47,847 nucleotides of DNA from a virus (IMGVR_UViG_3300021255_000128:128001-175847), one strand, 5' to 3'. Shown: positions 1-45,319, numbered from the stretch's first letter. Numbers and translations are program-made. Notes: generated by a model from the letters alone, not told the origin.

Positions 1-141
1 ACCAGCACCAAGTAAAAATCCAATCAATGCACCACCCCAGCCACCAAGGCCTCAACCATTACCATTACCATTGTTGAGAGCATAAGCTAAAGGAAGAGAA
101 TTACCATCATTTCCAAATACGTAAGTTTTTTCTTCTGCCAT
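1..141 (-). CDS. Conserved Bacteroidota-phage protein, N-terminal part only (runs off window): MAEEKTYVFGNDGNSLPLAYALNNGNGNG(W)GLGGWGGALIGFLLGAG
   Basis: ATG at 141 after an A/T-rich leader. The frame is open to the window edge with one in-frame TGA inside a Gly/Trp-rich hydrophobic stretch. A promoter -7 box lies upstream. Confidence 0.7.
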
Positions 142-196
142 TTTATTTAAAATTTAAAAGTTTATTTAAAAATCTACCTTTTGTTGATCAACAGTG

Positions 197-204
197 CAAA
201 GATA
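197..204 (-). promoter_or_regulatory. Bacteroidota primary-sigma -7 element (TATCTTTG)
   Basis: Matches TAnnTTTG about 55 nt upstream of the ATG at 141. The -33 box is non-canonical (TTAG at a 20-nt spacer). Confidence 0.6.
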
Positions 205-323
205 CAACCGATTTAATGGCAGGCCTAACAACGCTAAAAGAAAATTTTTAATTAGTTAATTTATTGATTTTCAATTAGTTATAAAAAATAGGAATTAGTA
301 AAACAATACTAATGATATAAAAC

Positions 324-356
324 AAAAAAGCCCTCCGCGATTTGCGGAAGGCTTTT
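324..356 (-). terminator. Intrinsic terminator, probably bidirectional
   Basis: The minus strand reads AAAAGCCTTCCGC-AAATC-GCGGAGGGCTTTTTT, directly after the stop at 361-363. Confidence 0.8.
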
Positions 357-360
357 CAAA

Positions 361-549
361 TTATTCAGAAAGTTCTGATTTTATAGCTTCAACAGCGCCA
401 CTTACAACAGTTGCAAGCTCTGAAACTTTATCCAATGATGTAGGATGCAAATTATAATTAAGTTCTGAACCCATATTATATGCATCAAATGAACCAACAC
501 CCTCTTTAGTTCCATTTATATTTTGAATGGTTTTATCTCCAGTGCAATT
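361..549 (-). pseudogene. 5'-truncated paralogue of the 1087-1356 small protein (..FNCTGDKTIQNINGTKEGVGSFDAY..VVSGAVEAIKSELSE*)
   Basis: Resembles the C-terminal two-thirds of 1087-1356 (VGSF, then an amphipathic C-terminal helix). The upstream in-frame TAA arrives before any ATG, and a hairpin (550-575) sits where the 5' end should be. Confidence 0.45.
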
Positions 550-589
550 AAATGCCCATTTTCTAACGGGCGTTTATATATTATTTAAA

Positions 590-1057
590 TTATTCTTCAG
601 GTGCTTTCCATAAAACATTTTCAAGAATAGACTCTACATAGTTATTTAGAGGGTCAGCAGCTTTTTCATCCTTAGGCCTATTTTCTTTTCTAAGAGCGTG
701 CCAATCTTCAAATGAAATAGTCTTTACACCCTCAAGTTCAACGTCTGTATTTAACATGTCTGTTCTGGCTTTAATTCAAGCGTTGTATTTTGAATTAAGG
801 TCTGCGAGTTCTGCATTCTGTTCATCGGTACGATTTTCTGTTTCATTGAGAGTCTTATAACGATCATCAAATGCCTGAGGATCATCAATACCAGCATCAT
901 TTAGAATCTGGCGTTCCTTTTCCTGAATTTCCTCGTACTTCTTAACAAGAATATTTCTAAACTTCATTACTTTGTAAGCATTTGCTGCAGAAAGATCGTA
1001 ATTAGTGATGTTATTAACACCAGAATTGATCATGATTAAAATGTCTAAATTTTTCAT
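590..1057 (-). CDS. Hypothetical 155-aa helical protein (code 4), paralogue of 1369-1830
   Basis: Reading through TGA 776-778 gives ..KYNA(W)IKARTDMLNTDVELEGVKTISFEDWHALRKENRPKDE..VLWKAPEE*TAA, collinear with its paralogue. Confidence 0.85.
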
Positions 1058-1086
1058 ACTACATTAACATTAATTTAATAATAAAT

Positions 1087-1356
1087 CTAAATTGTATCTA
1101 AATCTGAAGCGATAGATGTACGAACAGCTTTAATTGCAGCCATTAATGCATCCTGAATAGATTCAGTATCTTTTGTAAAATATAAACTAAAAGAACCAAC
1201 ATTTGTAGAATCAGAAGTGTTAGTTACATTGCCTTTAAATGTAACAAGTTTATCATCAGAATTGGTTGTTAAAGTTCCAGCAACTGTATAATCACCAGAA
1301 GTTGTAGAATAACTACCAGTATGGCCAGTTGCAACATAATTAGTAACAATTGTCAT
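1087..1356 (-). CDS. Hypothetical 89-aa protein (beta-rich N-terminus, C-terminal helix), possibly fibre-associated
   Basis: ORF track entry. No Trp, TAG stop, tightly packed between its neighbours. Confidence 0.8.
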   Translation of the reverse strand: MTIVTNYVATGHTGSYSTTSGDYTVAGTLTTNSDDKLVTFKGNVTNTSDSTNVGSFSLYFTKDTESIQDALMAAIKAVRTSIASDLDTI

Positions 1357-1368
1357 AGTTAATTACTT

Positions 1369-1830
1369 TTATTCATCGGGTTCCACCCACAAAACTCCTT
1401 TAAGAGCATCTTCAATATAATTTGTTATAATCTCAGAATCATCTTTAGGACGATTTTCTTTTCTTAATAAGTATCAATCTTCATAAGAAATTGTTCCAAT
1501 ATCATTTAATGTGATGTTATCTTGTAACATTTCTGTACGTACATCTAAATACTGTTTCCTCTTACTTATAAGACTTTGATATTTTTCGTCTTCTTCACTT
1601 GTTCGAGATTTATTTTCTTCTAATTTTTTTATTTCGGATTCCATTTCTTGCATATCTTGGATATTACTGGCTTCCAGTAGACTTCTTTCAAGAGATTGTA
1701 TTGTTTCAAAGGCTTTACTTAAAATGCTTTTAAATTTTAAGACTTTGTATCTACTAGAAGCCGGTAAAGTATCACAAGTAATATTTGGGAACCCTGAATT
1801 AAACATTATCACTATATCCAAAATTTTCAT
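1369..1830 (-). CDS. Hypothetical 153-aa helical protein (code 4), paralogue of 590-1057
   Basis: MKILDIVIMFNSG.. aligns with MKNLDILIMINSG.. TGA 1474-1476 aligns with TGG 701-703 (ISYED-W vs ISFED-W). The start is placed at ATG 1830 because the promoter overlaps 1851. Confidence 0.85.
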
Positions 1831-1850
1831 ATTACCATTTATTTTGAACA

Positions 1851-1882
1851 CAAAGATAATAAAAAATATTTATAAAACCAAA
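1851..1882 (-). promoter_or_regulatory. Bacteroidota sigma promoter TTTG-N20-TATCTTTG
   Basis: Both boxes present with canonical spacing, 20 nt upstream of ATG 1830. Confidence 0.75.
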
Positions 1883-1888
1883 AATATT

Positions 1889-3058
1889 TTATTGTATTTG
1901 AACGGGATCATCTTCCGTAGTATAGTAAATTTCATCATTTACACTTCCAACAGAAGTATCATCGTTACCATAAATTTCTACACAGACGTATTTTCCTATA
2001 TCATCATGGAAATAGTAATCATATCTATCACTATAATCAGACGTCAGTTCATGATTATATACAATAGTTTTATCAGTTGTTTGAACCCTATCTCATGTTG
2101 TTCCATCTGAACTAATTTTTAAACATATATGTAACTCTCCGAATACTTCTCATAAAGCATCGTGATTAAAGGTAATATAGACATAACCATCATTTGAATC
2201 AACAAATGTACCTTCAAAACTAAATCGAGAATATCCAGTTACATCATATGTCATTCCAGGAATTGCTACATATTTACTTCCTGGTGTACAATAGAATTCA
2301 CAAACTGTCGATGTTTTACCAGTAGGAGAACTAATGGCACCTCTAAAGGTACCATTATCTTTAAATGGAACCGTTCCAACAAAAACATATTGTTCGCCAT
2401 CTTCTGTAAAGAAAATAACACCTCTATTAGGATGCAATCCTGCTCCTGAATCAGACCCATAGCCTCCACCATAGTACATTATATCGTATATATGTAACAA
2501 TGGTCTAGAAACAACGTTTGCACCTAACATATTATTTCTATAATATGTTTTTTGACTAGTATCGTCTGATAAAGTCTTATTATTAAGGTTTTCAGTCTTA
2601 TCAATAAGCATAATTTTTCCATCACTCCATGTTCGTCCAACACTATATCCTGCTGATTGTGGGAATGACATATCCAATTCACTATTAGCTATATATCCAT
2701 CCAAATCAAGAGCTCTAGCCATATCTCCAGAAGTAATATCAGGTCTAGTGTATTTAATCATATCTAACTCCCCTTTTCATTGATAATCTGGATTAGACAT
2801 TGCAGAAACAACATTATTTACAAATTGACTTTGTGTTGATCCTGTTACACAAGACATTCCGGAAGCATAAGTTGTTACTAAAGTTTGTTTATCAATATTA
2901 ACTAAAGACGATTTAACAGGCTTAAATTTAGCCCATTTATTAATTGTTCCCCTTTGTATAAGACTACCAAGATCTAATGACGAATTACTTAAAGCATACG
3001 ATATATCTCCTGTGCTCATTGGAGCGGTTAATGTTTTAGTTTCAGAATTTCAACTCAT
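1889..3058 (-). CDS. Tail-fibre-associated (adhesin-like) protein 1, 389 aa (code 4)
   Basis: Merges track ORFs 2777-3019 and 2150-2761 through TGAs. The N-terminus MS(W)NSETKTLTAPMSTGDISYALSNSSLDLGSLIQRGTINKWAKFKPV is shared with 3081-4283. TAA stop. Confidence 0.8.
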
Positions 3059-3080
3059 ATTAATTTAATTTTATATTAAT

Positions 3081-4283
3081 TTACTCTATCGTTATAAATG
3101 ATGGTCCATATATATTAAGTGTATATGTTGCTCCAGCTTGTGTAATTTGAAGAGAACTGTCATCAATATTGGGATAATCTCCAGCTTTAATATTATAGCT
3201 CGCTACATTCTTTTCAACACTTTGTGAAGATACTCCTCCTGAAGTAGTCCAATCACTTAAAACAAACACATCATTAGATATAGTGCCCTTGACAATATCA
3301 TTATCGTCTCTAATTACAACATTTGCTATAGATATTTTATAATTATTAACAACACTTCCTGGTTTAGTACCTTCAAAAACAATTCTTTTTATTGTATAAT
3401 CTTGAGCTAAATACATACCATAAGTAAGAGTAACAGTATTGGAAGGTGAAGTTGTAGCATATTTAAATGTAAACTTACAATCAGATTTTTTAGGAAAAGG
3501 TAATGGAATCATTTCATATCAATTAGACAATGAACTGACATTTTGAGAAAATCAAGTATTTGTTGTAAAATTATTACTACTATTTACTCCAACAATATAT
3601 CCGTCATACGTACCAGAACTAATTGTTAAATTCGTAGGTAATGTAAAAGAAATCTCTCCATTAACAACAGAATTTGGAATACTTGTATCCATTATTGCAA
3701 CATAAGCTAAAGATGAACTAACTTTAACAATTACAGCTAACAGATAATTATTTAACTGTGTTAATTTAGAAACTTCGATACTAGTACTTCCAGCTTCTCC
3801 ATCATTAGTTTGAATGGTTAAAGTATTAGTTGCACCTTGATAACCATAGAATGTAAACTCAGTTGGTCTATACATTGGTACATTTGGTGTAGAAGTATAT
3901 CCATCATAATCTAGTAGTCTTCTTCAAAATGTTCCATTTAATGGCGGTTGCTGATATACTCAATCTACTGCTGCATCAGCAGTTTCTCCACTAATTTTAT
4001 ATAAATTTGTAGAAGTTGTAACCTTTAGTCCATACGGTGCAAGAACACTACCATCGGAACTACTAACATGTTGCTGCATATGTGTTATTCAAGCTGCATC
4101 ACTTGTATATAATTCATCTGAAGTATCATATCCACTTAAAAGACGTACTGGTTTATGAAGTGCTCATTTTTGGATCGTTCCGTTTGCAATAAGTGTTCCC
4201 AAATCTAATGAAGAATTACTTACAGCTTGACTAACATCACCAAGGGAAATTGGTTTACTCATTAAATAACCATTTCAAGACAT
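3081..4283 (-). CDS. Tail-fibre-associated (adhesin-like) protein 2, 400 aa (code 4)
   Basis: MS(W)NGYLMSKPISLGDVSQAVSNSSLDLGTLIANGTIQK(W)ALHKPV. Merges track ORFs 3552-3875 and 3081-3512 in one frame. Confidence 0.8.
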
Positions 4284-4310
4284 AATTATATTTTTAAATT
4301 AATAATATCA

Positions 4311-4334
4311 AAGTGTCCTCAAAAGAGGACACTT
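4311..4334. terminator. Perfect 10-bp hairpin AAGTGTCCTC-AAAA-GAGGACACTT; weak terminator or mRNA-stabilising stem
   Basis: Perfect inverted repeat 5 nt after the fibre stop codon, with only a short U-tract on the minus strand. Confidence 0.5.
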
Positions 4335-4339
4335 CAACA

Positions 4340-7300
4340 TTATTTTGTTTTTAACTTTAAGTTTTCTTCTAAAAGATCTTTTACTTGTTGTTCTAATTCC
4401 TTAATTCGTTTTTCATGATCTTGTACAACAGATACAATAGGTGAAATTAATTTTGTATAATCAAGTCGTTTATACTTATTAAATATAACACCGATTGCTT
4501 GTGGTAAGTATTGTTCAACTTCTTGAGCAATCATACCTATGTCATCACCGTTGTATTGATCATAGAGCTTTGTTGCTTCTTTCTTTCAAGTAAACGTTAC
4601 AGGATTTAGATTAAGAACAATTTTTTTAGCATCTTCTATAGATAGAGATTGAATATTAGTTTTTAATCTAATATCAGACGCAGCACCACCAGTAACTGCA
4701 CCAGGAGTTTGGAAATTTCCACTCGAGTCTATTCTCACCGAGTTGGCGGAAGTGGAACCAAGGTAAAGATATCCATTGTATCCCTGAATGTACCAAGTCT
4801 TAGATCCTTGGATGAGTTGCAGGTACGGATTTGATGTATCATTGCTGAGAATCCAATAATCTGATCTGAAAACAGATCCGTATACCCTTAATTGTCCACT
4901 TGCGTTTTCAATGATTCGAGACGTATAGTCCGCCGTTGAGTTATTGAAGTGGAAGTCAATATAACCACCATTTCCAGCGGACGATGCTACATTACTGAAC
5001 TCAATACAACTTGTTATTGCAGTTGTTGAAGTTAGCGTAGTGCAGCCAATAGAACCATTAACATCTAACTTGGCGCTGGGCGTAGTTGTACCGATGCCCA
5101 CGTTGCCGGAAGAGTTAAGGTACATTCCTGTCGTATGTGATGTCCCATAAGTGAATGCGATATTGTTCCCACTAACGTATGTATTGTGTCCGGCCCCGGC
5201 ATTGCCCCACGCGAGAAATGCCGCATTAGAAGTGTCTATACTTAATAACGTTCTTCTTGTGCCATCAGTATCAAGTCCTCCGTATGACTGGTTATTGGCA
5301 ATCGTTACACCCGCATTTGCTTGTATGTTCCCGCTTGCCGTCAGCGTAGAGCAGGCCCAAGGGACGGTAGAGAGATTGGAGTTACCGGAGTGCCAAAAGG
5401 TATAGGTGTTCTTATACTTGAATACTCCATTATTGTCAAGATTTACATACGGATGCCCGTCTGCATTATCGTTTTCCAAATATGCACCAACGGACGAATT
5501 GCTACCAACACCCGCGGTCGATGTCCCATTTACTTGGAATCCAATGTATGGGCCAACGACGCCGGTGCTGGATGTCTCTTCATTCAAATACAAGATTGCT
5601 CTTTCTGAAGATTTTAGGGTTCCACCGGTCAACGGAAGAGCATATGAGGAATAGTTACCGGAATGTAATACCGTTTGCCAACCTGACCCATTATACCAAT
5701 AGAGTGTGGTCGGAGCAGAAGCGGTGTACGCGCCCAACATTCCACTTCCCATCTCAATGACTTCGTTATCCATGTCAATACGAGCTGACATGGTTAACTT
5801 GCCAGTCAATGTACCTCCATTTAGTGGAAGATACCCACTGGCGTTATAGGGAGCATAGGTCGTAGAACCAATAAGGTTAGTAATGATAGATTTCGTGAGA
5901 TTAGATGAATTGTATATTGTCTTCCACGCATCAGACGTGAAATTAGATGTTGTCCCCTTGCGGAAATAAATGTTATTAGAGTTATACGGGAAAGCAATCT
6001 GCGTGATGGTGTCTGAAGAAGATGTCCCTCGAATCACAAGCACTTGGCCATAATTGAAATCCGTAGTTCCGCTTTGATTGGAAACGCGATAAATACCAGC
6101 CGTCGTGAATGTGTCAGGAGAGTCCCCATCCACTTTTTTTACTATCCAATCAGTAATACCATATCCACTTAAAGTCGTTGGTTTATCAGAAGTAATCTTA
6201 GTTCATGAAAGATTTGGAACATCAGATGCAGCAAGAGAAGATTTCTTTGCTCAAGCTGATACATCACTTGCAGGTAATGTTGTCGGATACGCAGGTAAAC
6301 TTACAACTCCGCTTGATGGAGAATATGAAGTAGTACCAACTTTTACAGATGTTACAGTACCAGTTTTATTCAATCCAGGGAAGTTGGTCGTATTAACATA
6401 AGAAGTATAATTTCCAGAATGAAGGACTGTATTATCTGTAGCCGTTGATCCAAGAGTACGATTTGGAGTAAAATATAAAACTCCATTCTTTGCTCATAAA
6501 GTATCAACAGTTGTAGTAGTACGGAAGAAATGAATACCTTCTGCGGAATTATCGGCAAGATCTGCTGTATATATAGAATTAACTCCATATATATTAGAAT
6601 TTGATAAGTTCAATGCACCACTATAAGAATCTGCATATTGATTTGCAAGCATGGTGAGTGTGCCTATCATAGTACCACCATTTAATGGAACATATCCATT
6701 TGAATTATATGGAGCATAAGTAGTTGTTCCAATTAATCCGGTAATAACGGATTTTGTTAAATTGTGTGTTCCATATAATTCTGCACTTTCTGCTCAGGAT
6801 GTTCTTGCAGAAGCACTACGCATGATATATGCTCCAAGTGATTGACGATTCACACCGAAAGCAACACCGCCCCCAACGTCGTTTGCGTTATAGCAGTCCA
6901 TGATAATCCAATCCTTATACTGTGAATTACCATTGACCGTGGTGTTCATCATCAGGAACCCTACTTTATTAGTTCCGAAGTAGTTTGGATTCTGCTGTCC
7001 GCCGTTTAGGGTGTAGGAACCAGTTACAACATTTGATCTAGTAGCATATGGTATCGTTAAGTCAGCATTTGTTCCATTGGTATTAACTCTAAGATAATCA
7101 CCGTTAATTGTTGTACTACGTACACCGGAGTTCGTAATAGTTGTACCAGATATTGAAATTCCACCTCCAGCAGAATATTTAGTATCTACTGCTGTAAGAT
7201 TTAATGTTAATGTAGAAGAAGTTCCACCGGTACCAGAATAAGTTCCAGTACCAGAGATATTTGTACCAGTAATTGTAATAGTAGGTAAGTGAGAGGTATG

Positions 7301-10300
7301 AATTTTCTTATCTAGACCTTCACCTGCGTTTGTAGTAAGATTACCTCAAACGGCTGTAAGATCTACTCCACTAGTTCCACCACTATTAGAAAGTCCTCCC
7401 GCACTAACAAATGAATCGGAATAGAATCCAGCATTGGTATGAAGTCCATTGGCATCTAATTCAAGATAATAGGTATCTCCAAATCAAATCTTTTTAGTAG
7501 TAGTAAGTTTTGCACCTCCTGCTAATGTAGAAAGACCTGTAACAGAAAGGGTTGAAGAAAGGGTTGTAGCACCTGTCACATTGAATGTACCACCTACTGC
7601 AAGTTTATAAGATGGTTGTGTGACACCAATACCTACATTGCCATATCCATTTTGAAGAACAAGAGGGCGTGTGTTATTGGTGCCACCGGTTATAAAGATA
7701 TGTGCGTAATCAACGTTTGCAGTTGCACCATTTATGTTAGTAATGGCATTACCTGTTCCCTTTATAGACGCACCACCAGAAAGTGTAGTAGTACCTGTGA
7801 CACTAAGGGTGCCGCCAATAGTAGTATTTCCAGATATTGTTCCTGTACCACTAAAGTCAGCATTTACTCCATAAACTGTAGATCAACGATACGAAGACTC
7901 TCCAAGGGCATAGGTATTCGTTGTGAACGGAGAGATAGTCCTTCATACACGATCATTAATACCACGTGACATTGATACATAGCGATTACCTTGCGAGCTA
8001 TAATTCACTAAACCTATCTGAGCAATTCTTCTTCCGGATGTAGTGTTGGGAGAACCTACAAGGTGAATTCGTATCATATCAAATCCGTAACGCGTTGTTC
8101 CGTTGTCGTTTACGGAATGAGAGAGGGGAGAATAAAACAAATTGCGATTAGCATCAGAAGTGTTCGAAATCTTGCTTACATATGCAGTTTCATAAGCAGA
8201 CAATTTTACAAGCACTTCAACCGTACTGAATCCCCACCCAGAACCGAAATCAATATAGAACTTATTAGAAAAAGAGAAAATATGGGGCAAAGTAATATCT
8301 ATAATGATACCATCTGCTGCCATTTCCTCAGCTGTCGGATTACCGAAGTTGTAATACAAAGGCGAACCATCAAAAATTGCAGCATAAGTATTATCAGACC
8401 CCCACAAGTGCTTTATCGTTAGTGTCTCTTTTGTAAGGTCAGTATCCGTCGTAGAATAAATAGTGACGTGCCCCCCTTGTTGTACCAAGAAAGCAATGTC
8501 ATTATTAAGGAATGGAACGAGAACTCCAACCGTTGACCTTTCTGGATGGGACACCAAGTAAGACGATGCACTATCAGAGATTTTCCCGGATATAATGTTA
8601 CCATTTATAGTAGATACTTGTGTTGCAGTTCCAGCATTAAGATAAATTGGTCTTTCACTCGAACCAATAGTGGAGCTACCGAGTTTACTTGCAGTTCCAA
8701 CAGATAATGTAGATTGTGCCACTCAAGAGGGAGCACCTGAGCCGTTAGATTTAAGAATATAATTGTTAGTTCCAGCTTCTGTTGGAGCATAGAAACTGGC
8801 AGTACTTGACGCCTTACTTGTACCATTCAATGTAACAGCGGTACCTCCAGCATAAGTACTATTTGAAACATTTTCAAGTCCTACATCTGTCTTTGTGACA
8901 GTATCTCAAACAGGAGCAGTACCATTTGTACCATTACCAACCATTCTCAAGAACTTTCTTGTAGTAGTTGTATTATTTGAAATTTGGTCTAATGTTGTAC
9001 TAGCACTAGCATATACAACTCCATACTGAGTTCAAGTAGTCTTTCCAGTACCGCCTTTATCAACTCCAATCTTAGTACCACTTCATGTACCTGAACTAAT
9101 AGTACCAACAGTAGTAATATTACTACTTCCAGATCAAGTTGATAATGCAGTATTTTCTACATTCCCAAGTCCCACATCAGATTTACTAACTGTTTCCCAA
9201 GTAGGAGCCTTACCAGCAGAACCTGTTCCAGTCATACTCAAGAACTTCTTAGTTGCTGTAGTATTTGGAGCAAGGGTTGTCATTGCTGTTGCACTAGAAG
9301 TGTATACAATTCTATAAGCACCAGTAAATGGATTTGAACCTGACATTCCAGTACCACCATAAGCAGCAGTTATTGCAGTGCCGTTCCAAGTACCAGAAGT
9401 GATAGTACCAACTGTAACAATATTACTATTACCTTTGTGATAATAAAGTGTATTAGCTGTGATTAGATTTGTACTAGCTGTAACAGCTGTTGCAGATGTG
9501 TTATTAGTAATTTTACTTGAAGATACATCAAGAGTTCTATTACTTTCAAGACTACCACCACCTGACAAATAACCTGTACCAGTAATAGTCGTTGTTTTAG
9601 CAGCTCATGAGCTTTCGTCACCCAACTGAATCCATTTAGATCCATCTCAAGCAAATTCTTTTCCGCTATATATAACCAAATCACCAGTTTTTGCAGTTAA
9701 ATCAGAGCCGTTAATCTTCGCAGTTTCTGTACCGCCATTAGTAATAGCTGTAGAGCTTTCTCCTCTAAAATACAAAGCAGAAGAAATAGCACTATTTATT
9801 TGAGATTTAACATAATCAGCAAGAACTTTAGCTGTCCATAATCTACCAGTAGTTGCAGTACCTGTAGTTAGATCACTAGCAGAACCAGCAGAATAAGTCG
9901 TATTATTAAATGCATTTGCAGGTAAGCTATACCACTTTAAAGTAGTTCCTGTAAATCCAAGGAAATAATAAGAATCAGATGATGAACTTGTTGCTCTATT
10001 TGCAGTAGAATACATCGGAGCTAATCCATTAACAGAAGCAGTTACAACATTATAAGTAGTATCTGTTGCAGAAATTACACCTGCAGAAGAAATAGAAATA
10101 TTTGTTCCAGCAGTATAAGATAAGTGACTAACGTCAATCTTTTTAGTACTATCTGGTTCAGCTAAAGCTGTTCACAAACCATCCTCATCTATTCCTGATG
10201 AACCACTACTATTACTCAATCCTCCTGCAGAAACAAAACCATCTGCATAAAAGTTTCCTATAAGGTGTCATGCTTTATTAGTATCATCTCATACTAAATT

Positions 10301-11182
10301 AGAAGATGCATTATTATATGTTCCTCCTAATGTGATTCCTCCTGAAAACGTAGAAAGATTGGTTACTCCTAATGTTCCATTTACCTCTAATTTATATGCA
10401 GGATTTGTTTTATTTATACCTACATTACCTCCGTGTATAATATTTACATAATCATTAGCAGAAGTTGCAGTTGTGGATGCAGGACCTCGAAATCGCATAC
10501 CATTTGAATCAACAGTGATACCTCACATTCCAGCATCATATCCTGTTGCATTTGTTGCACCATATCAAATAGACGCAATACCTCCATATTTATGTAATCT
10601 TATACCTTCTGCAAAAGATGCTGTACCGGTAATATTTACTACTGATGAAACAGTTAAAGTTCCTCCAACATTAACGTTACTACTAAATGCACCAGTAGTA
10701 ATGCCTGTTAAAGCTTGTGCAGCAGAACTGGATTGAACTTTAGTAGTACCTATATATAAAGCAGGTATATCCGCAAAAGCAATACTTTCCCAAGAAGGAA
10801 CACTAGAAGTCATTGTTAAATACTTCTTAGTTCCTGTATTTGCTGCTAATTTAGCAAGTGTATTTGCTGCAGAAGCATAAAGTATATCACCTTTAGTATA
10901 AGATGTTAATCCAGTACCGCCTTTAGTTTCATCAATAGCTGTAGCACTTCATGTTCCAGAAGTAATAGTTCCTACTGTAGTGATATCACTAGAACCATTT
11001 CAAGTAGCTCAATAAGCATTTGTACCATTGCTCAAAAGCATCTGTCCTGCTGTTCCAGGGCTCATTGTTGTAGAAGTAGAAGATGAACGAGCCTTTATAG
11101 TATCAACTTGTACAACATCTGCTAAAATTGTATCTGTAACCCTTAAATTACCAGATACAATCGAATCTTTTAATTGTGCCAT
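4340..11182 (-). CDS. Long tail fibre, 2280 aa, with C-terminal peptidase-S74 intramolecular chaperone (code 4)
   Basis: Seven track ORFs share one frame and are separated by TGA. The C-terminus SDIRLKTNIQSL..LNPVTFT(W)..IGMIAQEVE..LDYTKLI plus coiled coil is the S74 signature. Fibre motifs KPTTLSGYGITD, YLPLNGGTLTG, GNVGIGTTTPSAKLDV and LGESSYR(W) are present. Confidence 0.9.
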
Positions 11183-34718: not shown

Positions 34719-35141
34719 TTATTCATTTTGTGTTCCCTTTGGAACGATTCTACATAATATATTTTGTTCATCTACCTCTCATAGGTTTTGTTTTCTAAAT
34801 GGTACTGGTTTGAGAATATGCTTTATAAGAAAAACATCCTCTCCAACTTTTACATTTTTACAAAAAGGACCAACTGCGATCACTTTTGCACAAGTAACAT
34901 ATTCATCATTCTCTTCAATTTCTCCAGAATCACTGGATTTAACTTTCTGAGAACTTTGAACACCTATAATAAGGCCGGACTCAGTTTTTTCAATTTTACG
35001 ATAGGGATTTTCATCATAAGGTTTTACAATAACTCCCACATTACAAGGAATTATGTCAAACTCTCCCTCTTTAATTCCATCTAATTGTTTTTCAATAATT
35101 GTATCAGACATTAACCTATCTAAATAATCCATATTAGCCAT
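34719..35141 (-). CDS. GroES-like co-chaperonin, 140 aa (code 4)
   Basis: IIPCNVGVIVKP..KTESGLII..AKVIAVGP..VKVGEDV. Read-through of TGA 34779 supplies the final (W)EVDEQNIICRI strand. Confidence 0.75.
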
Positions 35142-35142
35142 A

Positions 35143-35367
35143 TTATCATTTATTTAAAGAACAGTGTTCATCAGGACTTGCAGTTTTTGCATGTAATTCA
35201 CATCCACAATGTGAGCAAATATAACCACGTCCTATTTTAATCTTATCATCACATTCCATACAAATTTGGAATCTCTCTTTAGACTGTTTTATATTTTTGT
35301 GGAAGATAAAATTATATCAACCTATAATAACTCTTCCTACTCAATTAAAGAACCTTTTTATTACCAT
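35143..35367 (-). CDS. Small Cys-rich (Zn-binding-type) protein, 74 aa (code 4)
   Basis: RFQICMEC..ICSHCGCELHAK..HCSLNK(W)*TAA. Paralogue of the adjacent gene. Confidence 0.7.
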
Positions 35368-35576
35368 TTTTTAGCAACACAATGTGCTGTTGGATTTTTA
35401 GATTTCCATTTAAGCCTACAAGCACAGCCTCTAATTCATCCAGACTTTGGAAGTCTTGATATCTCTCCAGTTTGAGGATTCATCCATTTGGAACTATCAC
35501 AAACTGGCCCATAAACAGGGTCATTTTTAACTAGAGGACATGTTGCACATATTTTTAATCTTTCTTCACTTGTCAT
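35361..35576 (-). CDS. Small Cys-rich protein, 71 aa (code 4)
   Basis: MTSEERLKICATCP..GCACRLKWK..HCVAKKW*TAA, with one internal TGA. Confidence 0.7.
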
Positions 35577-35577: not shown

Positions 35578-36531
35578 CTATCCTATTTTATATGGTTCTA
35601 TCCTATCTAATTGTTCTCGTATCTGAAGTTGATTTTTATAATGTCTTATCATTCTTTCAACATCATTTTTACAATATTCCATCGGATATTCTGTTTGTTT
35701 TCCGGATCGATCGATATGAATAATTGATAAACCTCTAATGTTAAATTCTGGCCTTAATTGTTGTAATATTCAGCAATAAGTACTTAACTGCAATTGATAA
35801 TGTGCATAATTGCAATCCATAAAGTTATTAAGAGGATATTTCATACGTTGAACATCTTTCTTATTCTTATCATAAAAGCTCCTTTTCTTAATTTCTTTAT
35901 TTGTTTTCCAATCTAAGCATCAAATATCATTTCCTTGTTTAACAATTAAGTCAGATTGTCCAGCAATTTTTAATTTACCATCATCCGATGTTCAAGACAT
36001 TAAAAATTCTGGATAAACAGCATTTGGAAGATCCAATTCAAAATAGTTACGTGGACAATCATATAATCCAGATGCTTCTGCATATCCGTATTTTGAAAAA
36101 TCAAACTGAGTGTTACCATAAAATGTATTCTCCATTAAAGAGTGTACATAACTACCATGTTCGCAAGCTTCATCACGATTTAAAGCTCATTCTTGTTTGA
36201 TTTTATCAACTTCTTTATTAAATTCTTCAAGATTTACTTTATATTTTTCTAATAAAGAATTATCCCACCTTTTAGTTGCTTGGAGTTTTAATTTAACATT
36301 TGATCATACATCTCCATCTAAAAATAACTCTAAAGCTTTATATTTAGATCAAAACTCTTCATCAAATTTATTTTCATACTCTCCAATTAACGTAGTTACG
36401 GAAATATAATGTGAACCATCTTTCTTATTTACATATAAATGACTTGCATCATTAAAGAAAAGTTCTTTGTTTTCTTTATCAACACTAAGTCCATATAATT
36501 CTTTATACTCAATTCCGTCTAATTTTGGCAT
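35578..36531 (-). CDS. PD-(D/E)XK (Cas4/RecB-like) nuclease, 317 aa (code 4)
   Basis: HLY..SVTTLI, GSYVH, E..AGQSDL..LDWKT, HYQLQLSTY. Only the first 60 aa appear in the track. Confidence 0.85.
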
Positions 36532-36578: not shown

Positions 36579-36971
36579 TTATTCAGATTGCTCTGTATTC
36601 TTTTCAAGCATTAATTCTTCTGGAGTAAGTTCAGAATATCCGAATGGAGGTATTCTTGTTTTACATCCAAGTTTTGAACATCGCATTAAAGTAGCTTTTG
36701 CCAAGGCTGTATTAGCTTCATCTAATTTTTGTCTTAACATCGCACTAGTATCTTCAAGTTCAGTGATTCTTGAATCCTTTTTCTCAAGTCTTTCGTTTTG
36801 TTTTTCAATCTGATCTTGAAGTCCATTAACTAACATGCTCCACCGATTATCTTCTTTTTCTGCGTTGTCAATTTTCATACTTTTTTTGGTCTCTCGTATG
36901 GTAAATAGGCTAATTATTCCTCCACCAGTCAACGCTCCGATTATTGCAATTATAATTGATATTCAATCCAT
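36579..36971 (-). CDS. Putative holin / membrane-anchored coiled-coil protein, 130 aa (code 4)
   Basis: An N-terminal TM segment MD(W)ISIIIAIIGALTGGGIISLF, then a coiled coil and a CxxxxC-RxPP tail. Transcribed divergently from the endolysin cassette. Confidence 0.6.
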
Positions 36972-37392: not shown

Positions 37393-37874
37393 ATTGATTT
37401 AAAAAGAAAACTCCAAGAACTTGAAAATTTGGTGATAATCCAAAAGTACATTGATTGGCAACTAATAGATCAAAATATGATATGACTACATTTTGTAAAA
37501 TTGTATTAACTCAACTTCTAAAAATAGAGAATGTTGAATTAGTAGTTCTTACAAACGATAAGGCCATTTCTAAATTTGATTCTTCTGATATCGAAATGCA
37601 AGCATTATTGCAAGGTGTTCCTGAAAGACATCAATATCGATTAACACTACATAGTAGAATTAACCAATCAATGCTTACTGCAATTATTTGTCATGAAATG
37701 ATTCATCTAAAACAGTATGAAAAAGGTGAGTTAAAATTAGTTCATGGAGGTGCAACATGAAATGGAAAATTTTATGAGAAATGTACGCCATACTTCGATA
37801 GACCTTGGGAAATCGAAGCAAATGACAAAATGTATGAATTAGAAAGAGAAGTATTAAAGTTATACTATGAATAA
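37386..37874 (+). CDS. HEXXH zinc metallopeptidase, 162 aa (code 4)
   Basis: IICHEMIHLKQY..(W)NGK..YFDRPWEIEA. The third zinc ligand region lies beyond TGA 37758. Four in-frame TGAs. Confidence 0.8.
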
Positions 37875-38529
37875 TGTAATAGAGTTAAATCCAGCTACTG
37901 TTACTGGATATAAGTTTTGAGTTTTATTAGATAACGGTCATGCAAAGTCAACTCCTGGAAAACGATCCCCCGTATTTGAAGATGGGAAACAGTTTTTTGA
38001 ATATGAATTTGCAAGAGATATTGTAAATAGAATATCTAAAGAATTAGAAAAATTAAACATTAGTTATAAAATAGTAACTCCAGAAGTAGATAAAGATATT
38101 GCATTATCTACAAGAGCAAATAGAGTAAATAGATATTGTCAGAAACTTGGAAAAAATAATTGTTTACTAGTGTCTGTTCATGCCAATGCATCAGGAAATG
38201 GTAAACAATGGATGCCTGCAAGAGGTTGGAGTGTTTGAACAACAAAAGGAAAAACAAAATCCGATGCATATGCGGATATATTTTATAAAGAGGCTGAAAA
38301 GCTTTTACCTTTATATGGAATGAACGTAAGAAAAGATTTATCTGATGGAGATTATGATTATGAATCTGATTTTACAATTTTATACAAAAGCTGATGCCCA
38401 GCACTAATAACTGAAAATCTTTTCCAAGATAATAAAATAGATTGTGAATTTTTAATGTCTGATAAAGGAAGGGATGTTATTACACAAATTCATATAAACG
38501 CAATAAAACAAATATTAAATATTAAGTAA
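37867..38529 (+). CDS. N-acetylmuramoyl-L-alanine amidase (Amidase_3) endolysin, 220 aa (code 4); absent from the ORF track
   Basis: LDNGH..TPGKRSP..EYEF, LSTRANRVN, VSVHANA, PALITENLF. TGAs at 37918, 38236 and 38392. Confidence 0.92.
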
Positions 38530-38796: not shown

Positions 38797-41700
38797 TTAT
38801 GGTGTATTTAACTGTGATCAGTTGCCATTATTATAATATTTTATTCCAGAACTATCTATTTTTAAGCCATAAGTTCCACCTGTTAAAAATTCTAAAGTCA
38901 GGGTTGAATCTGTAGTATTTGTCTTTACTCTAAAATAATTGTCAGCATTTAAAATATGTTGGAAACCATTAGCTCCAATTTCAGTTAACTGCGTAGGTGT
39001 TGTTGTAATATTATGATAGTTAACTAATGGACTGAATATATTTTGATTTAAATATAATTTAGGATTCTCGAATAGTGTCCTTGTATCTGTTTCAGAATCA
39101 AATCAAATAATAAGCCAATAATCAAGATATAATGTATAGTTTCCTGGAGTTAACATCATTGTTTTGATAATATCTCGTTTTGTTTCTCCAGAAGAATACC
39201 TATCTGTAAGTAACGTAAATGCTTGGGCTTCTGATCTAACAGTGAGTCCAGATGTGCCGGTAATTGCAGAGGCATTATCATCTTGATCAATACTCTGATA
39301 TCATTGACTTGTTTCTTGTCCAGTTTTAGTATTTCTTGCGTAAATTCTTACTTCTCATTCGATTCTTGGAACAAGATCTGTTTTTGCTTCAGTTAATGTT
39401 CCTTCAAAACCTACACTAATTGTTTGAGGAAGAAGAGAATAAACTTCATCTGCCTGACTACCTGTGGAAGATAATATGTCAATATTACCTAATGCAATAG
39501 TATCACTACATTCTAAAGAATTTTCTAAATACTCTGTGGCATTAGCACCAGTAACTCATGAACCTAATGAATTTTTTCAAACTGTTTGTTTAGAATTATC
39601 AACATCTTCTGAAAGATCATCTCCAGATATCTTACATCTTGGAACACCAGGTTCTGAATTTAATACAATTTCATTATTTGCAATGTCCAATGTACCTGTA
39701 TCAGAACCTTTACCAGTCGTGTGTAATTCTTCAGCGATTAAATTTGAAACCTCAATCTGATTAGCGGCAATTTTATCAGAAAGTAAAAGTTTAGTTGCTA
39801 CAAAGTCTCATCCTTTTGCTTGAACGAAATAGTCAGGAAGTGTTGATGGATTTGCATTTGCAGGAACAGATGGATATTTTATATTCTGTTTACATCTCCA
39901 TAATCTATCAGCATTGGATGCAGCATTAGTTATAGTGATTCCTTCTTCTGCAACAGGCCAAATTGCAATATCATAGAATGTATCAGTATCATTATCTCCA
40001 CATTGTCATTCGCCTAATCCTTCAGCATCAGGGTTTGTATAATAATCCCAATTACGCATTCTTAATCTTGGACCAATATCACCTTTACTACCAGGATTAC
40101 CTTGTGGACCTTGAGGACCTGTTTCTCCGTCTTTTGCAAATTTTGCCCATAATCCTAATTCTCCAAATTGTAATTCTCACTCTCCATTAATTCGTTTAAT
40201 TGTGGAGCAATAACAATATGGCATTGATACTGTTGGAGCTTGTGGATCATCACTTCATCCTGTAGGAATCCATTCTCCATCAGATGTTTGAGATGCAGGT
40301 TTTGCAGGAATGTTACTTGTGCGTTCAGCAGCAGTTAACTCATGATCAAACAGTTTATAAACATATTGAACGCCATCACCATCTTCACCTTTCTCTCCTC
40401 ACTGACTCCATATTTTTGCAGGACTAAAAGGACCCCATTTTCTGGTAACATTGTCGTAATCTCGATAAGATGTCCATTCTGTTTTAGCAGTACTGGTTAT
40501 ACCTTGAGGACTATCTCACCATCCATTAGGAACCCAATCAGATAATGTATCACTATAGGCAACATTTCCATTGGCTGCATGATTTCCTGGAGAAATTTCA
40601 CCATTTCCAGAACTAGGAGGCGTTCCAGGATTTGCAGTTTGACGTTTATAAACTCATTCTCTACTTGTACCATCAGCACCATTTTCTGCTCAATTGGTAT
40701 GTAGATGCATCGTACCAGAATATTGTTCCCAGATTTTAACTTTACCTGTAGAATCATTAGGATCAGCAATCTTCTTACGTTTTGCCTTCCATTCAAACTT
40801 ATGATAAAAATCAGCACCTTGTGGGTCATCGGTACATTCTGTTGCAGCCGCTAAATCTCCACCACTAGCCATTGGAAGATAATCATCATCAAGATATGTT
40901 TTATTATGACTATCAGCGGCAGCACTACTTACTGTAGGAGCAACATTTGTATTTGTACGAATGTATACAGTTTCCTCACCAGCTCCATCTGCACCACGTT
41001 CACCTTTTATTTGTGTTAAAGATCATTCTGTTCATTTACCATTAATCAATGAACTAGTAGCCATTCATTTAGGATTAGAAACATTATCACTTCATATACC
41101 TAAGCTATTTTGTGTACAATATTGTCTCCATGCACTTTCGTTTACACCTTCAGGATCGTTATTATCAATAAAAGGATATTCGTTATTAATTCTTTCATCA
41201 AATCTTGGAAGTCTTGTAGAAATAGTAACTATATCTGAATTAGAATATTCTACATTAAAGAATTTATTATCAGATATAATTCTTGGAGATTCCCATGACT
41301 GATCTTGTTCTTCTGCATCTGGATCAATACTTCCAAATTGTTTGGTGGTCATTCATATTGGAGCATGTCCTATTTCAGGATTTTCAAAATCTTCAGGTCC
41401 TGGAACAGTATCAAACCAATTAATTGTTTCGGTTACTTGTGTTCCATCAATGGTTTGAGTAATCGTTTGAGGATCGGGTAGTGGATTGGAAGTATCACCA
41501 CCCTCTAATTGCATACTGCCAAGTTTTAAACGGCTTCTAGTAAAAGCAAAAGATGTAAACACGGGTGCGTATCCTGACCAGAATTTATTTCAAAGTACAG
41601 GATTGCCAAATCAACTCCATTGTCCTGTTTCTCCGTTATATTTTCTTATAGAACAGAATTCAAATGGTTGAGAAGGACTGACATCTAAAGGATCATCTGT

Positions 41701-42909
41701 TCAGTTTCTATCCCATCCTAAACTTGCAGCATCCGGATGTCCAGGAAGATTTCCAGGAACAAATTCATCTTGTTGATAAAGTTCAAGTGCAGCTTCTTCA
41801 GTGGTGTAACCTTCAGAATTTCTTGCTACAGTTAAAAATGCACTTGCACAACCCTCACCACAGATAGGAGGCCAGAATTCGGTTTTAAGTGTATAGCTTC
41901 CGTCATTATTGTCAATAACTTCATTTTGAGAAGCTACTCTAAAGATGTATTCTATGCCATCACCGTCAGTTCCATCTTCACCTCATATAGCTCACATTAC
42001 AGGGCCAATAAAAGGTCCTCAATTCCCTGTTTCTTTATCTTTCTTTCTAGAGCACATTATCTCCGCTTTGTAGTTTACAGGGTCTATTCCAGAAGGACTA
42101 TCAGTTCATCCAGTAGGAACATAATCGTCTGTTTCTGGTTCAGAATCAGGTGTAGGAACTAAGCGAGCTGCATCTTCGTCAACACAACGTTTATAAATAA
42201 ATTCTATAGATTCACCATCAACTCCATTTCTTCCATCCTTTCCATCTTTACCATCACGTACTCCATTAATACATATTGGTTCAGATCAATCACCTATAAT
42301 TTCTCCAGTCTCTGCAATGAATGTTCCCATAGACATCCATGTATAACAACCATCAACATGATTATTATCACTTGATCAATCCGTAGTCGTTCTTCCAATA
42401 GAAGCACCATTCTTAAAAAGTTCTGATGCAATATCTCCGACCAGTCTATTTTCTGTAACGTTTCATGCTCCTCCAGCAGGCCTTGATGGGACAAGATTTA
42501 TATCAGGAAGTTCAAGGAAAATTAAAAATGTTCTAGTTGTTGCATCATCATAAGTATCTGGTGCAATATCTCTTGAATTTCTAATTAAGATTGGTTCTGT
42601 CCAAGGAACATAAACAGATGTTGGACCAACAATTGTATAAGACATTCAGATGTTTCCAGTAAGTCCATCTGGCGTAGATCATCCTTCAGGATAAGCAGTT
42701 GGAGCATTTGAACTCATAACAGATATTGGTGTATCTGGTTTTAAGTCCGATGATTTAAAGACTGGAACACAAAGTACAGCATTGTTTCCTATAAGTGTTT
42801 TTATAGCTTCATCATAGTCTTCCGGAGAAGTACAAAAATCAATATTACCTCCCATTTCTATGATGGCGTCTCTAATATCATCAAATATTCGTTTTATTTC
42901 TTCAATCAT
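38797..42909 (-). CDS. Large Trp-rich tail protein with repeated domains and short collagen-like linkers, 1370 aa (code 4)
   Basis: Track ORFs 42679, 42463, 41353, 41092 and 40690 are in one frame. About 8-9 units of G(W)xDxP..(W)..R..(W)GxFxxPxx(W)..GEDG, plus GKDGKDGRNG and GPQGPQGNPG linkers. Confidence 0.8.
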
Positions 42910-42911
42910 AT

Positions 42912-44594
42912 TTAATAATTATTATAATAAGGTGAGGCCTTTCAATCTTCTGGCCCTCTATATTTTGTATAATCAACTTGCCTTCCAAACCGATCTACAG
43001 TTTTTCAATCTCAATCGTATTCTCCTAATGCCATAGCCCTTCTTGCTGCAGAACGTACTCCAAGTCATCCTTTTGCAGATTTAGAATGATCCATCTGTTT
43101 AACAAGTTCTCTTGGATCAGTTATTCCAGAATTAATCATTTTCATTAAATTTGGACTATCTTTTATCGTATTGGTAACACCTTTACCATTATAGGACGTA
43201 TCAACTAAAGCTAGCTGAACACCTCTTGAAAGATTTTTAAAATTCGGAACTTGTTTCATTCAATCGTCATATTCCTTCTGTAGATGTTTCTCCATTTCTT
43301 TTCTTGCAATTTCTTCTGTAAGTTTACCTTCATTTGCAAGTTTTATCATTTCTGGATTTGCGCTACCATATCCTGCAAGAGTTTGAGGTACTCCATCTGA
43401 AGTATTTAGCACATAAGCGTTGGGATTAAAAGTTTCAAAGCTTCCTGTAAATTTAGCAAGATCTGCTATTGTTTTTGGACCAATGTATCGATCCCCTTCT
43501 CAATGTCCAGCATCCATTCCAGGTTTATAATATTTAGATTCAGTTGAAAAAGTTTCATGACCTGGAAGTTTATAAGTATCGGGAAAATGGAATCCAGGTG
43601 CAATTACTTCATACTGTTTACCTTGTTTTACAAGATCATCGTAATAACCACGATAATCATAATGATGTTCGGGAGCATCAGGATTAGGATCTAATCCAAG
43701 TGTTGTAGAAACATATTGATATCATTTATCAAAACCATTGTCTACTCTTGGAGGATCGGATAGATTATATTCTCTTTGATATGGAGACGGAACTCTTTCT
43801 ACAAGAGATGTGGTACTTTTTGGAGATTTAAGAATACCTGCGTTTTGCATTTTTACAATTCCGCCTAATTTATAGGTAAGTGCTTCTAATGTTGCTTGTC
43901 TTCTTCTAGCAGAATGATTATTTGAATCTTTACCATAGAGTTGTATATGTTTTGCTCCATAGGCTCGATCTCTTTCTGCTACAGCTTTTGCAAGACGATC
44001 TCCACTAACATCTCTATAATTACCTCCTGTATACATTACATACGTCAAGTCAGAAGCTTCATCGGGATTAGATGATTGCCTTAATGCAGCTAGATATTCA
44101 GGATACTTTCTTTCAATTTCATCTGCAGCAAAATCTAACTGAGATTGAAGAGAATTACCATGTGTAGACGTTCATCTAACAAAGTCATCGTGCCTATTAT
44201 GGGTTCATTGTCCGATTCCTATTCCATATTGGGATGGATTTACAGAAGAGTTCTTTCCTAATTTTTCTGCTCTGTTTTCAGCATTAATATTTAATCCAGA
44301 TTCTCTCATGAATGATCCTACAATAGCTGATGCTTGATAATCAGATAATCCTAATCTAGACATTAGATAATTTCTTGCAGAACGTCCTTTTCCCTGTTTA
44401 GAAGAATCGTTTCAATCAATTATAGATGCTTCGACTTTTTTCTCTTCTGGCTTAGATTCTGGTAATGGAGCTATTACTATTTCATCTTGTTTCTTCTTTT
44501 TTGTAATCTTTGGCAAATCTACTTCAAAATTTGGTTGTTGAATTTGAAAAGTAGGTGTTTGATTAACATAAGGTGTATATTCTATTTGTGCCAT
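42912..44594 (-). CDS. Virion-associated peptidoglycan hydrolase, 560 aa: phage-tail-lysozyme-like domain, middle domain and GH24-like lysozyme domain (code 4)
   Basis: GLSDYQASAIVGSFMRESGLN..GIGIGQ(W)T..QLDF; YDYRGYY..HFPDTYKLPGHETFSTESKY; FETFNPNAY..TLAGYGS..QLALVDTSYNG. Confidence 0.75.
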
Positions 44595-44596
44595 AA

Positions 44597-44710
44597 CTAT
44601 ATTGTATTTCGATCTTCTTCATTATCATCTTCTGCTTTATTTATTTCTATATTAGCACTATCGTTCATTATAGCTTTTATAATAGCAAGTTCTAATTCAG
44701 TATTTTCCAT
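44597..44710 (-). CDS. Very small acidic protein, 37 aa
   Basis: MENTELELAIIKAIMNDS..NTI*TAG, between a promoter and the next ATG (2-nt gap). Confidence 0.5.
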   Translation of the reverse strand: MENTELELAIIKAIMNDSANIEINKAEDDNEEDRNTI

Positions 44711-44736
44711 AACATTTTTATTTTATAGTTTTCGCG

Positions 44737-44768
44737 CAAATATACAAAAATAAATTTAAAAATCCAAA
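44737..44768 (-). promoter_or_regulatory. Bacteroidota sigma promoter TTTG-N20-TATATTTG
   Basis: Both boxes present with canonical spacing, just downstream of a terminator. Confidence 0.8.
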
Positions 44769-44783
44769 TAAATATGATAAAAT

Positions 44784-44813
44784 AAAAAATCCTGAACCGA
44801 ATAGTTCAGGATT
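44784..44813 (-). terminator. Intrinsic terminator
   Basis: The minus strand reads AATCCTGAACT-ATTC-GGTTCAGGATT-TTTT. Confidence 0.8.
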
Positions 44814-44818
44814 CCCAT

Positions 44819-45106
44819 TTATTCGTCTATCTTTTTATCTTCATCTTTTTTAAGCATCTCTTTTAAGAGTTCTGTATCTTTATTTGAACCTCACATTTCA
44901 TTTGGAAATGGAGGTAAAAGTAACATTCCTAAAATGAGTCATAGCAAACAAAAACTTCAATTAGAGCCATATCCATACATTGTAGTAGATATAGTTTTAT
45001 TAAATTGTTCTAAATCTGCTTCTGTTTCAGGTCTCGGAAATACTTTCTTTTGCTCGTCTGTAAAATTACAGCGATCGTATGCTTCTTGAATTGTTTTTAA
45101 GTCCAT
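44819..45106 (-). CDS. Small single-TM protein, 95 aa (code 4); absent from the ORF track
   Basis: MDLKTIQEAYDRC..SN(W)SFCLL(W)LILGMLLLPPFPNEM(W)GS..KIDE*. Three TGAs cluster in and around the TM helix, where Trp is expected. Confidence 0.65.
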
Positions 45107-45150
45107 AGTAGTAATGATTTTATGGGCTTTAGATAGACTTACGTATTTGG

Positions 45151-45297
45151 TTAAAAATGGTTTGCTGCTTTATTAGCCATGTAATCCACTACAAACTGTC
45201 TTACATACTGTTGATTAGTGGATTGTTGTAATAATGCCAAAATCTGTTTTAGCATTACATTGTTTTCTCTTAATAACTGCGATTCTTCTCTAGTCAT
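45151..45297 (-). CDS. Small hypothetical protein, 48 aa
   Basis: MTREESQLLRENNVMLKQIL..NHF*, directly downstream of a promoter. Confidence 0.55.
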   Translation of the reverse strand: MTREESQLLRENNVMLKQILALLQQSTNQQYVRQFVVDYMANKAANHF

Positions 45298-45319
45298 AAC
45301 ACGTAAATTTTAATTTTTA

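Follow-up and report, generated by a model that had tools for sequence, protein, structure and literature searches.

Evidence that TGA encodes tryptophan in the replication and late genes of a crAss-like phage carrying a UCA-anticodon tRNA

The closest described counterparts of the genome considered here are the opal-recoded crAss-like phages of the Zeta group (PMC7886860, PMC12386605), which have genomes of 145-192 kb, carry about 20 tRNAs, a DNA polymerase of the B type (PolB), group I introns and homing endonucleases, and read TGA as tryptophan in the genes for the terminase large subunit (TerL), portal, RNA polymerase (RNAP), helicase and PolB. All 39 rows assigning TGA to tryptophan in Supplementary Data 1 of Yutin et al. 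belong to Zeta (PMC7886860), and the proposed family Echekviridae (Babkin 2025, PMC12386605) includes opal, PolB-bearing members of 173-177 kb. The present analysis concerns a window of 47,847 nucleotides (IMGVR_UViG_3300021255_000128:128001-175847), which comprises the late-gene arm and the start of the early arm of a phage genome in which the same traits recur, the RNAP being putative here; the recoding of TGA to tryptophan described below is already known in kind from opal-recoded crAss-like phages of the Zeta type. In contrast to the published opal Zeta phages, the partition between the two codes was measured here at the level of genes, one switch from code 11 to code 4 lies within the plus strand at the RNase H gene instead of at a strand switch, the suppressor tRNA carries A73, and close public sequencing runs are mostly labelled as bovine, not human, gut.

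Three further systems invite comparison. Agate and Jade phages (Borges et al., bioRxiv 10.1101/2021.08.26.457843) resemble the present phage in their recoded late and lysis genes, their suppressor tRNA, an early gene whose intron endonuclease is recoded and a model of timed expression; recoded early endonucleases were already proposed there for Agate phages. On the contrary, Jade phages encode a tryptophanyl-tRNA synthetase (TrpRS) and release factor 1 (RF1) beside the suppressor, none of which was found here or in 26 relatives, and the crAss and Agate examples of that study have standard-code replication genes, whereas those of the present phage are recoded. Dual-code crAss-like genomes detected with Mgcod (Pfennig et al., bioRxiv 10.1101/2022.06.29.495998) share the block-wise use of codes 11 and 4 and early genes readable in both, but there the code switch coincides with a strand switch, while here one switch occurs mid-strand; moreover, a Sup-TCA tRNA was reported for 3 of 17 code-4 genomes, as against a UCA tRNA in 14 of 14 relatives examined here. 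Lak megaphages (Devoto et al. 2019, PMC6784885) are likewise recoded gut phages with introns in tRNA genes, yet the introns named there reside in Tyr and Thr tRNAs and were not assigned to a class, whereas those of the present clade split the opal suppressor after U34 and display P/Q/R/S-like motifs of group I.

The original prediction, derived from the window alone, held that TGA is recoded across positions 1-45,300, which a comparison of coding density under different translation tables bore out. Measured as coverage by stop-to-stop open reading frames (ORFs) of at least 150 codons, the coding fraction of this region rises from 0.379 under table 11 to 0.905 with TGA as a sense codon and stays at 0.379 with TAG as sense, while ten shuffles preserving local composition reach at most 0.057 with TGA as sense. 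For the whole window the values are 0.374 (table 11), 0.873 (TGA sense), 0.391 (TAG sense) and 0.590 (TAA sense), and only TGA as sense lengthens the longest ORF, from 808 to 3,223 codons. Table 15, in which TAG is sense, was rejected for want of a coding gain, and reading TAA as sense was dismissed as well, its small gain being confined to short ORFs. Under code 4, 29 genes tile positions 590-45,106; 26 of them contain TGA (177 TGA and 80 TGG in total), and they terminate in TAA (26) or TAG (3). As had been predicted, the table-11 fragments mostly end in TGA (177 of 206) and the genes run on to a TAA or TAG close to the next gene, with intergenic gaps of at most 4 nt in 15 of 28 cases and at most 30 nt in 21 of 28. 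The right boundary near 45,300 proved correct as well, since the plus-strand genes beyond it lack internal TGA save for one codon located five codons before a TAA. TerL, portal, amidase and fibre genes are indeed fragmented under table 11. This matters for annotation, because that table breaks up about three quarters of the genome, with the genes for TerL, portal, endolysin and the putative RNA polymerase among those affected.

The identity of the inserted residue was approached by codon-level alignments in which TGA and TGG were both masked as X. A non-opal set comprised five phage records whose compared genes lack TGA: three named Crassvirales and two relatives, one of them standard-code and the other amber. 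Here the 66 cells opposite a TGA of the window hold W in 16, Y in 13, F in 10, K in four, Arg in three and G in one, so that the proposed alignment with homologues yields tryptophan or another aromatic residue rather than glycine. A second comparison took in 80 IMG/VR loci chosen for TerL relatedness (49-87% identity), in which 1,966 cells opposite TGA contain TGA 707, TGG 342, Y 340, F 71 and G 49 times, 41 of the 49 glycines falling in one variable portal column; of the 34 TGA columns, 13 have TGG and 10 have Tyr as the commonest state other than TGA. Among the six nearest distinct relatives (155 cells), TGA is opposed by TGG in 34 cells, the reverse exchange occurs in 15, and glycine is absent. 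In addition, the active-site tryptophan of the thioredoxin motif WCGPC and the W of the RNase HI motif W-V-K-G-H are both encoded by TGA, and codon 124 of the amidase is W in four of five homologues from bacterial genomes, codons 18 and 176 not being conserved. The four TGA/TGG paralogue pairs reported from the window (1474/701, 4164/2933, 10268/14398 and 35146/35364) were recovered exactly and in the contexts quoted. An all-versus-all paralogue test gave TGA 18, TGG 7, T 6 and G, S and L four each among 60 cells; it is weak because it draws mostly on low-complexity fibre repeats, and the call of the residue therefore depends on outside homologues. Judged by these alignments, TGA almost certainly stands for tryptophan in these phage genes.

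The features of the window, with lengths in amino acids (aa) and counts of TGA and TGG codons, are as follows.

590-4283, minus strand: five code-4 genes including two paralogue pairs (590-1057/1369-1830 and 1889-3058/3081-4283), which contain the TGA/TGG pairs 1474/701 and 4164/2933
4340-11182, minus strand: tail fibre of 2,280 aa with a C-terminal Peptidase_S74 chaperone domain; 24 TGA, 18 TGG
11186-13555, minus strand: Laminin_G_3/ConA-like virion protein of 789 aa; 10 TGA
13558-16533, minus strand: fibre-like paralogue of 4340-11182, 991 aa; 11 TGA; carries the TGG of the 10268/14398 pair
16538-26176, minus strand: tail protein of 3,212 aa; 27 TGA, 9 TGG
27048-29267, minus strand: portal of 739 aa; 4 TGA; crAss001 gp20, PHROG 6547
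29542-31779, minus strand: TerL of 745 aa; 11 TGA, 2 TGG; PHROG 6681
34719-35141, minus strand: GroES-like co-chaperonin; 1 TGA
35143-35576, minus strand: two small Cys-rich paralogues ending in K-W-stop (TGA-TAA at 35146, TGG-TAA at 35364)
35578-36531, minus strand: PD-(D/E)XK exonuclease; 6 TGA
36579-36971, minus strand: membrane/coiled-coil protein of 130 aa with a weak Rz-like spanin match; TGA at codon 3
37867-38529, plus strand: Amidase_3 endolysin of 220 aa; TGA at codons 18, 124 and 176
38797-42909, minus strand: Trp-rich protein of 1,370 aa without family match, a presumed virion protein by position; 31 TGA, 22 TGG
42912-44594, minus strand: protein of 560 aa with a Phage_lysozyme2 domain; 10 TGA, 0 TGG
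44819-45106, minus strand: gene of 95 aa that closes the recoded block; 3 TGA
45501-47847, plus strand: beginning of the early arm, written in the standard code and running on over the terminal repeat into genome 1-45 kb

Coiled-coil repeats of the 3,212-aa tail protein (17000-25600, within 16538-26176, minus strand) extend over about 800 codons without Trp, which accounts for the 808-codon ORF under table 11 and for a 770-codon shadow frame antisense to it. The GroES-like gene, with its single TGA, lies 120 kb from the GroEL gene, which contains none and is located in the standard-code arm at genome 42309-43895.

Recoding is unevenly distributed over the genome. The early arm was taken to run from genome 173.4 kb past the terminus as far as 45.4 kb; its 52 non-endonuclease genes contain one internal TGA and 124 TGG, and its five endonuclease genes 17 TGA and one TGG; the corresponding counts are 59 and 83 for the middle arm and 267 and 155 for the late arm (early versus late, Fisher p 1e-42). 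Seven plausible early genes terminate in TGA, in three cases by an ATGA overlap with the start that follows; since a TAA or TAG comes 3-9 codons further downstream in all seven, these genes survive either reading; three more TGA-ended calls are endonuclease fragments or doubtful. Inside the window, the early-arm gene at 45847-46536 terminates in TGA one base ahead of the next ATG. Since the early arm avoids internal TGA and can stop at TGA, it is readable in the standard code. Among the replication genes, that of RNase H at 45.4 kb, mid-strand, is the first to be recoded, and the DNA polymerase gene contains 10 TGA and no TGG. Recoding thus holds for the structural and lysis block to which it had been assigned, but this block does not mark its limit: it spans about 128 of 176 kb and extends to the genes of the putative RNA polymerase and, starting with RNase H, to the replication arm.

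A similar partition was obtained for 13 relatives, counting ORFs with a positive codon score and with the early/middle borders of two genomes (G014, G028) placed by eye; G003, which is near-identical to G002 with unrelated segments, was left out. Their early arms hold 84 TGA and 1,299 TGG in 548 non-endonuclease ORFs, as well as 56 TGA and 8 TGG in 20 endonuclease ORFs, and their middle arms 274 and 409. Exceptions in the early arm include a GNAT, a LicD and a ClpP gene containing TGA. RNase H orthologues have two to five internal TGA in 11 of 11 relatives whose fetched DNA held the orthologue.

The genome record (G000; G002-G028 denote relatives, L numbers DNA stretches and X numbers sequencing runs) measures 175,847 bp at 32.7% GC, has a 107-nt terminal repeat and 21 tRNA calls, and is rated complete. 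Its crAss-like identity, as originally proposed, is supported by several lines of evidence. The best annotated matches of TerL (PHROG 6681) are to Suoliviridae, Steigviridae and Intestiviridae (at most 31% identity, E 2e-55), the portal matches PHROG 6547 and the crAss001 portal gp20 (PDB 7qog, E 1.6e-12), and a DnaG primase search matched 145 records, crAss phages leading. Matches to DnaB_C, Helicase_C and AAA_24 indicate DnaB and SNF2 helicases and an AAA ATPase of crAss type. The DNA polymerase matches PHROG 1252, its family-B label being a reading of motifs. A putative RNA polymerase was assigned by motif and position, with SDLDID (DxDxD-type) in a 3,358-aa ORF of a gene block of 1,496, 3,358 and 3,136 aa; this ORF gave no PDB, PHROG or named-phage match. 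The putative major capsid protein is an intron-split gene at genome 119.3-122.4 kb, assigned by position, whose searched exon likewise returned no PDB, PHROG or named match, and PDB searches with the amidase and a muzzle-like protein gave no matches.

Within the crAss-like phages, the genome most likely belongs to the Zeta group (proposed Echekviridae), as tree pattern, size and intron load fit. A quick maximum-likelihood TerL tree of 39 rows, including nine named references, unites G000 and 27 opal relatives in one clade (Shimodaira-Hasegawa-like approximate likelihood ratio test, SH-aLRT, 96), with a standard-code and an amber phage as its sisters, and places them together on a long branch (SH-aLRT 100) away from the nine references, a placement also described for Zeta. 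Size and tRNA block fall within the Zeta range of 145-192 kb, and the load of introns and homing endonucleases is of the kind by which Zeta phages are recognized, with two Rfam Intron_gpI matches above threshold, both in the putative capsid gene, eight endonuclease-like ORFs and inserts in the Leu and Arg tRNAs. Because the tree comprises no named Zeta TerL, membership is likely rather than proven. The host is probably a member of the Bacteroidales: the amidase shares 59% identity with a gene of a Bacteroidales contig from a metagenome-assembled genome, and all five cellular matches are Bacteroidota by their titles. To this extent, the Bacteroidota host of the original prediction is an inference. 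Many of the public runs sharing 29-43% of the genome's words are labelled bovine gut, while an RNA run (X20) shares no more than 5% of them.

A candidate for decoding TGA lies outside the window. The last tRNA of the early arm, at genome 41581-41657 (L003:5581-5657), has a UCA anticodon and was found by both ARAGORN and Rfam (50.7 bits); it folds into a class I cloverleaf of 77 nt whose variable loop measures 4 nt, carries T56, directly follows an HNH gene and sits 3.7 kb ahead of the RNase H gene. No tRNA-Trp(CCA) was found in G000. Neither TrpRS (PF00579) nor a release factor (PF00472) was detected in G000 or the 26 relatives, although the controls matched; accordingly, the Jade-type arrangement of TrpRS and RF1 beside the suppressor occurs in none of these genomes (0/1 and 0/26). 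The suppressor is immediately followed by a gene for a 156-aa helix-turn-helix-like (HTH-like) protein in G000 (L003:5671-6141), G002/G003 and G009, which lies 2.4 kb past the suppressor in G024 and contains three TGA in G009 and G024; its HTH matches are at lead level only (Atlas).

Suppressors were also sought in relatives, where pattern and DNA searches found none because the tRNAs are too divergent. They were located by a tRNA family search and fetched stretches: 16 relatives were scanned and the tRNA regions of 14 were fetched, G007 and G021 being left out. Once introns and odd arms are allowed, a UCA tRNA is present in all 14, which correspond to about ten distinct tRNAs rather than 14 independent cases. 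ARAGORN found it in eight, and a hairpin scan added G012. In G005, G009, G010, G016 and G020 the gene is split after U34 by an insert of 213-600 nt with a terminal G and P/Q/R/S-like motifs of group I type, and excision restores CU-UCA-AA. The genes concerned, and those of the UCA tRNAs with a long extra arm, are the following.

L128:12342-13032 (minus strand), L091:6936-7374, L107:9057-9510 (minus strand), L110:10979-11266 (minus strand) and L105:520-839: split suppressor genes of the five relatives
L098:12588-12681, L094:2026-2116 and the spliced tRNAs of G005, G010, G016, G020 and G022: long-arm UCA tRNAs

The exons of G016 match the uninterrupted tRNA of G018 and G022 at every position, and the spliced G020 tRNA, though not called by ARAGORN, folds into a cloverleaf. 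Rfam intron matches are below threshold for G009 (33 bits, E 6.8e-7) and G005 (18.5 bits, E 0.022) and absent for the G016 insert, which an ORF interrupts; hence, the label 'group I' rests on sub-threshold matches, P/Q/R/S-like motifs and U...G splice sites. A 14-mer splice-junction pattern matched at least 120 loci, and 15 of those listed splice to a UCA tRNA. Intron-internal endonuclease ORFs, mostly PD-(D/E)XK-like, have TGA at codon 4 or 5 in eight of ten examined, so that the intron endonuclease would itself need the spliced suppressor. Moreover, 7 of the 14 UCA tRNAs possess an extra arm of 25-26 nt with a loop resembling the CCA-type anticodon loop of Trp. Published counts of suppressors are low, with 1 of the 39 Zeta genomes (Yutin et al. 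2021, PMC7886860) and the 3 of 17 genomes of Pfennig et al.; in the relatives examined this 'missing suppressor' gap closes when anticodon introns and long arms are allowed, and host suppressors therefore need not be invoked there. No report of an intron-split suppressor was found in a literature search that left aside subscription journals, bioRxiv supplements and the supplementary figures of Yutin et al. As side observations, G022 has a possible CUA (amber) suppressor call beside its opal suppressor (L095:16354-16434), and in the phage under study the tRNA-Leu(UAA) and tRNA-Arg(UCU) genes (genome 9376-9685 and 10913-11424) contain group I-like introns in the anticodon loop.

Taking the sequence evidence as a whole, it is very probable that TGA is read as tryptophan by the phage tRNA-UCA charged by the host TrpRS. 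Early genes would be made by the host's standard machinery, with timing suggested by gene order, and the suppressor would accumulate during early expression; replication proteins, followed by virion and lysis proteins, would become full length once it is present, and the early-arm homing endonucleases, being written with TGA, would be delayed likewise. The tRNA is probably charged by the host TrpRS, as we infer from the lack of a detectable phage TrpRS or release factor. Published work offers precedent: Trp was incorporated in E. coli extract by each of the 13 phage tRNA-UCA tested (PMC12636597), and a distinction between C34 and U34 is described as unnecessary for E. coli TrpRS (PMC12135181). 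For genes with 22-31 TGA, half of the chains would reach full length at a per-codon read-through of 0.969-0.978, a demand of 97-98% that predicts strong out-competition or blocking of host release factor 2 (RF2). Several observations weigh against this reading. Many TGA columns hold Tyr, Phe or other residues in homologues, and therefore not every TGA lies at a conserved Trp; the set of 80 relatives, gathered by means of a code-4 query, does not consist of independent lineages; and no second or split UCA or CCA tRNA was found in G000. The tRNA-UCA of this phage combines C1-G72 with A73, while G73 is present in the UCA tRNAs of all 14 relatives. G73 is the major bacterial determinant for Trp, and its change to A lowers activity about 9-fold with B. 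subtilis TrpRS (PMC12135181), which fits poorly with the read-through required. The A73 form is real and not an assembly error, as metagenome contig L142 has the identical tRNA and run X8, from another study, shows no change in it. In strains of runs X2, X5 and X7 the DNA differs upstream of L003 position 5681, just before the next gene; the tRNA/HNH cassette therefore appears variable among close strains, which suggests a recent swap.

It is accordingly possible, if on balance doubtful, that TGA means Trp but the A73 tRNA is too poorly charged by the host TrpRS alone and needs an unrecognized phage factor, such as a non-homologous charging helper, a tRNA modifier or an RF2 inhibitor; this would refine the suppressor model, not replace the code. 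Besides the points just given, the single A73 phage tRNA-UCA in print is accompanied by its own TrpRS (PMC12636597), but no TrpRS-like or RF-like gene was found here, tRNA abundance could offset the lower charging, and no candidate has emerged, the gene behind the suppressor being HTH-like at lead level only. A host that itself uses code 4, with the phage following and the tRNA merely adding supply, would explain recoding over such a length, replication genes included, and Table 1 of Babkin 2025 predicts Holdemanella/Faecalibacillus instead of Bacteroidota for some opal Zeta phages (PMC12386605); this is nevertheless very improbable, given the near-absence of TGA from the 52 early genes and its similar avoidance in 13 relatives, the three ATGA overlaps at which TGA is a stop, and the nearest cellular homologue of the amidase, which stands on a Bacteroidales contig and has no TGA in the aligned part. 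Still less credible, and ruled out on the alignments, is a reading of TGA as Gly (table 25, as in Gracilibacteria/Absconditabacteria phages), Arg or selenocysteine: among the 66 cells of non-opal homologues one is Gly and three are Arg, none of the 155 in the nearest relatives is Gly, and the WCGPC motif as well as a 77-nt tRNA with a 4-nt variable loop, which is not selenocysteine-like, oppose it. ARAGORN, on the other hand, labels the tRNA as one for selenocysteine under the bacterial code, and A20 together with an anticodon loop one base from that of Arg-UCU would presumably favour Arg identity. Pseudogenes or assembly errors, suggested only by the appearance of the genes under table 11, deserve practically no credence and are refuted by conservation: 79 of the 80 related loci have at least two TGA in TerL/portal at shared columns, contigs of four further runs cover TerL-portal, and no frameshift was found within the 29 code-4 genes.

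Extended to the opal Zeta clade as a whole, the suppressor model leads to a more tentative proposal, namely a timed, near-complete switch of UGA to Trp by tRNA alone, with a universal suppressor and, in the present genome, an A73 form that would have exchanged its acceptor end for a non-bacterial one (C1-G72, A73) and would need a phage factor. We regard as equally speculative its corollary that the suppressor is hidden by a self-splicing intron in the anticodon or by the arm with the CCA-type loop, and that the factor boosts charging or silences RF2. How a phage lacking recognizable TrpRS or release factor genes would attain about 97% read-through of UGA is a testable question, for which the A73 tRNA constitutes a natural test case and possibly an orthogonal UGA tRNA for synthetic biology.

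Some further genes deserve mention. At genome 69909-72976, a YqeY-like gene, a PHA02142 OB-fold gene, which we take to be RNA-ligase-like, and an AAA_33 kinase-like fragment have possible functions in tRNA repair or handling. The standard-code arm contains, at genome 29342-33232, a cluster of glutamine amidotransferase, phiEco32-like COOH-NH2 ligase, class II glutamine amidotransferase (GATase) and amidoligase genes, and the early arm of the relative G009 encodes a Tad3-like (Thoeris inhibitor) domain (L111:8796-10043, minus strand).

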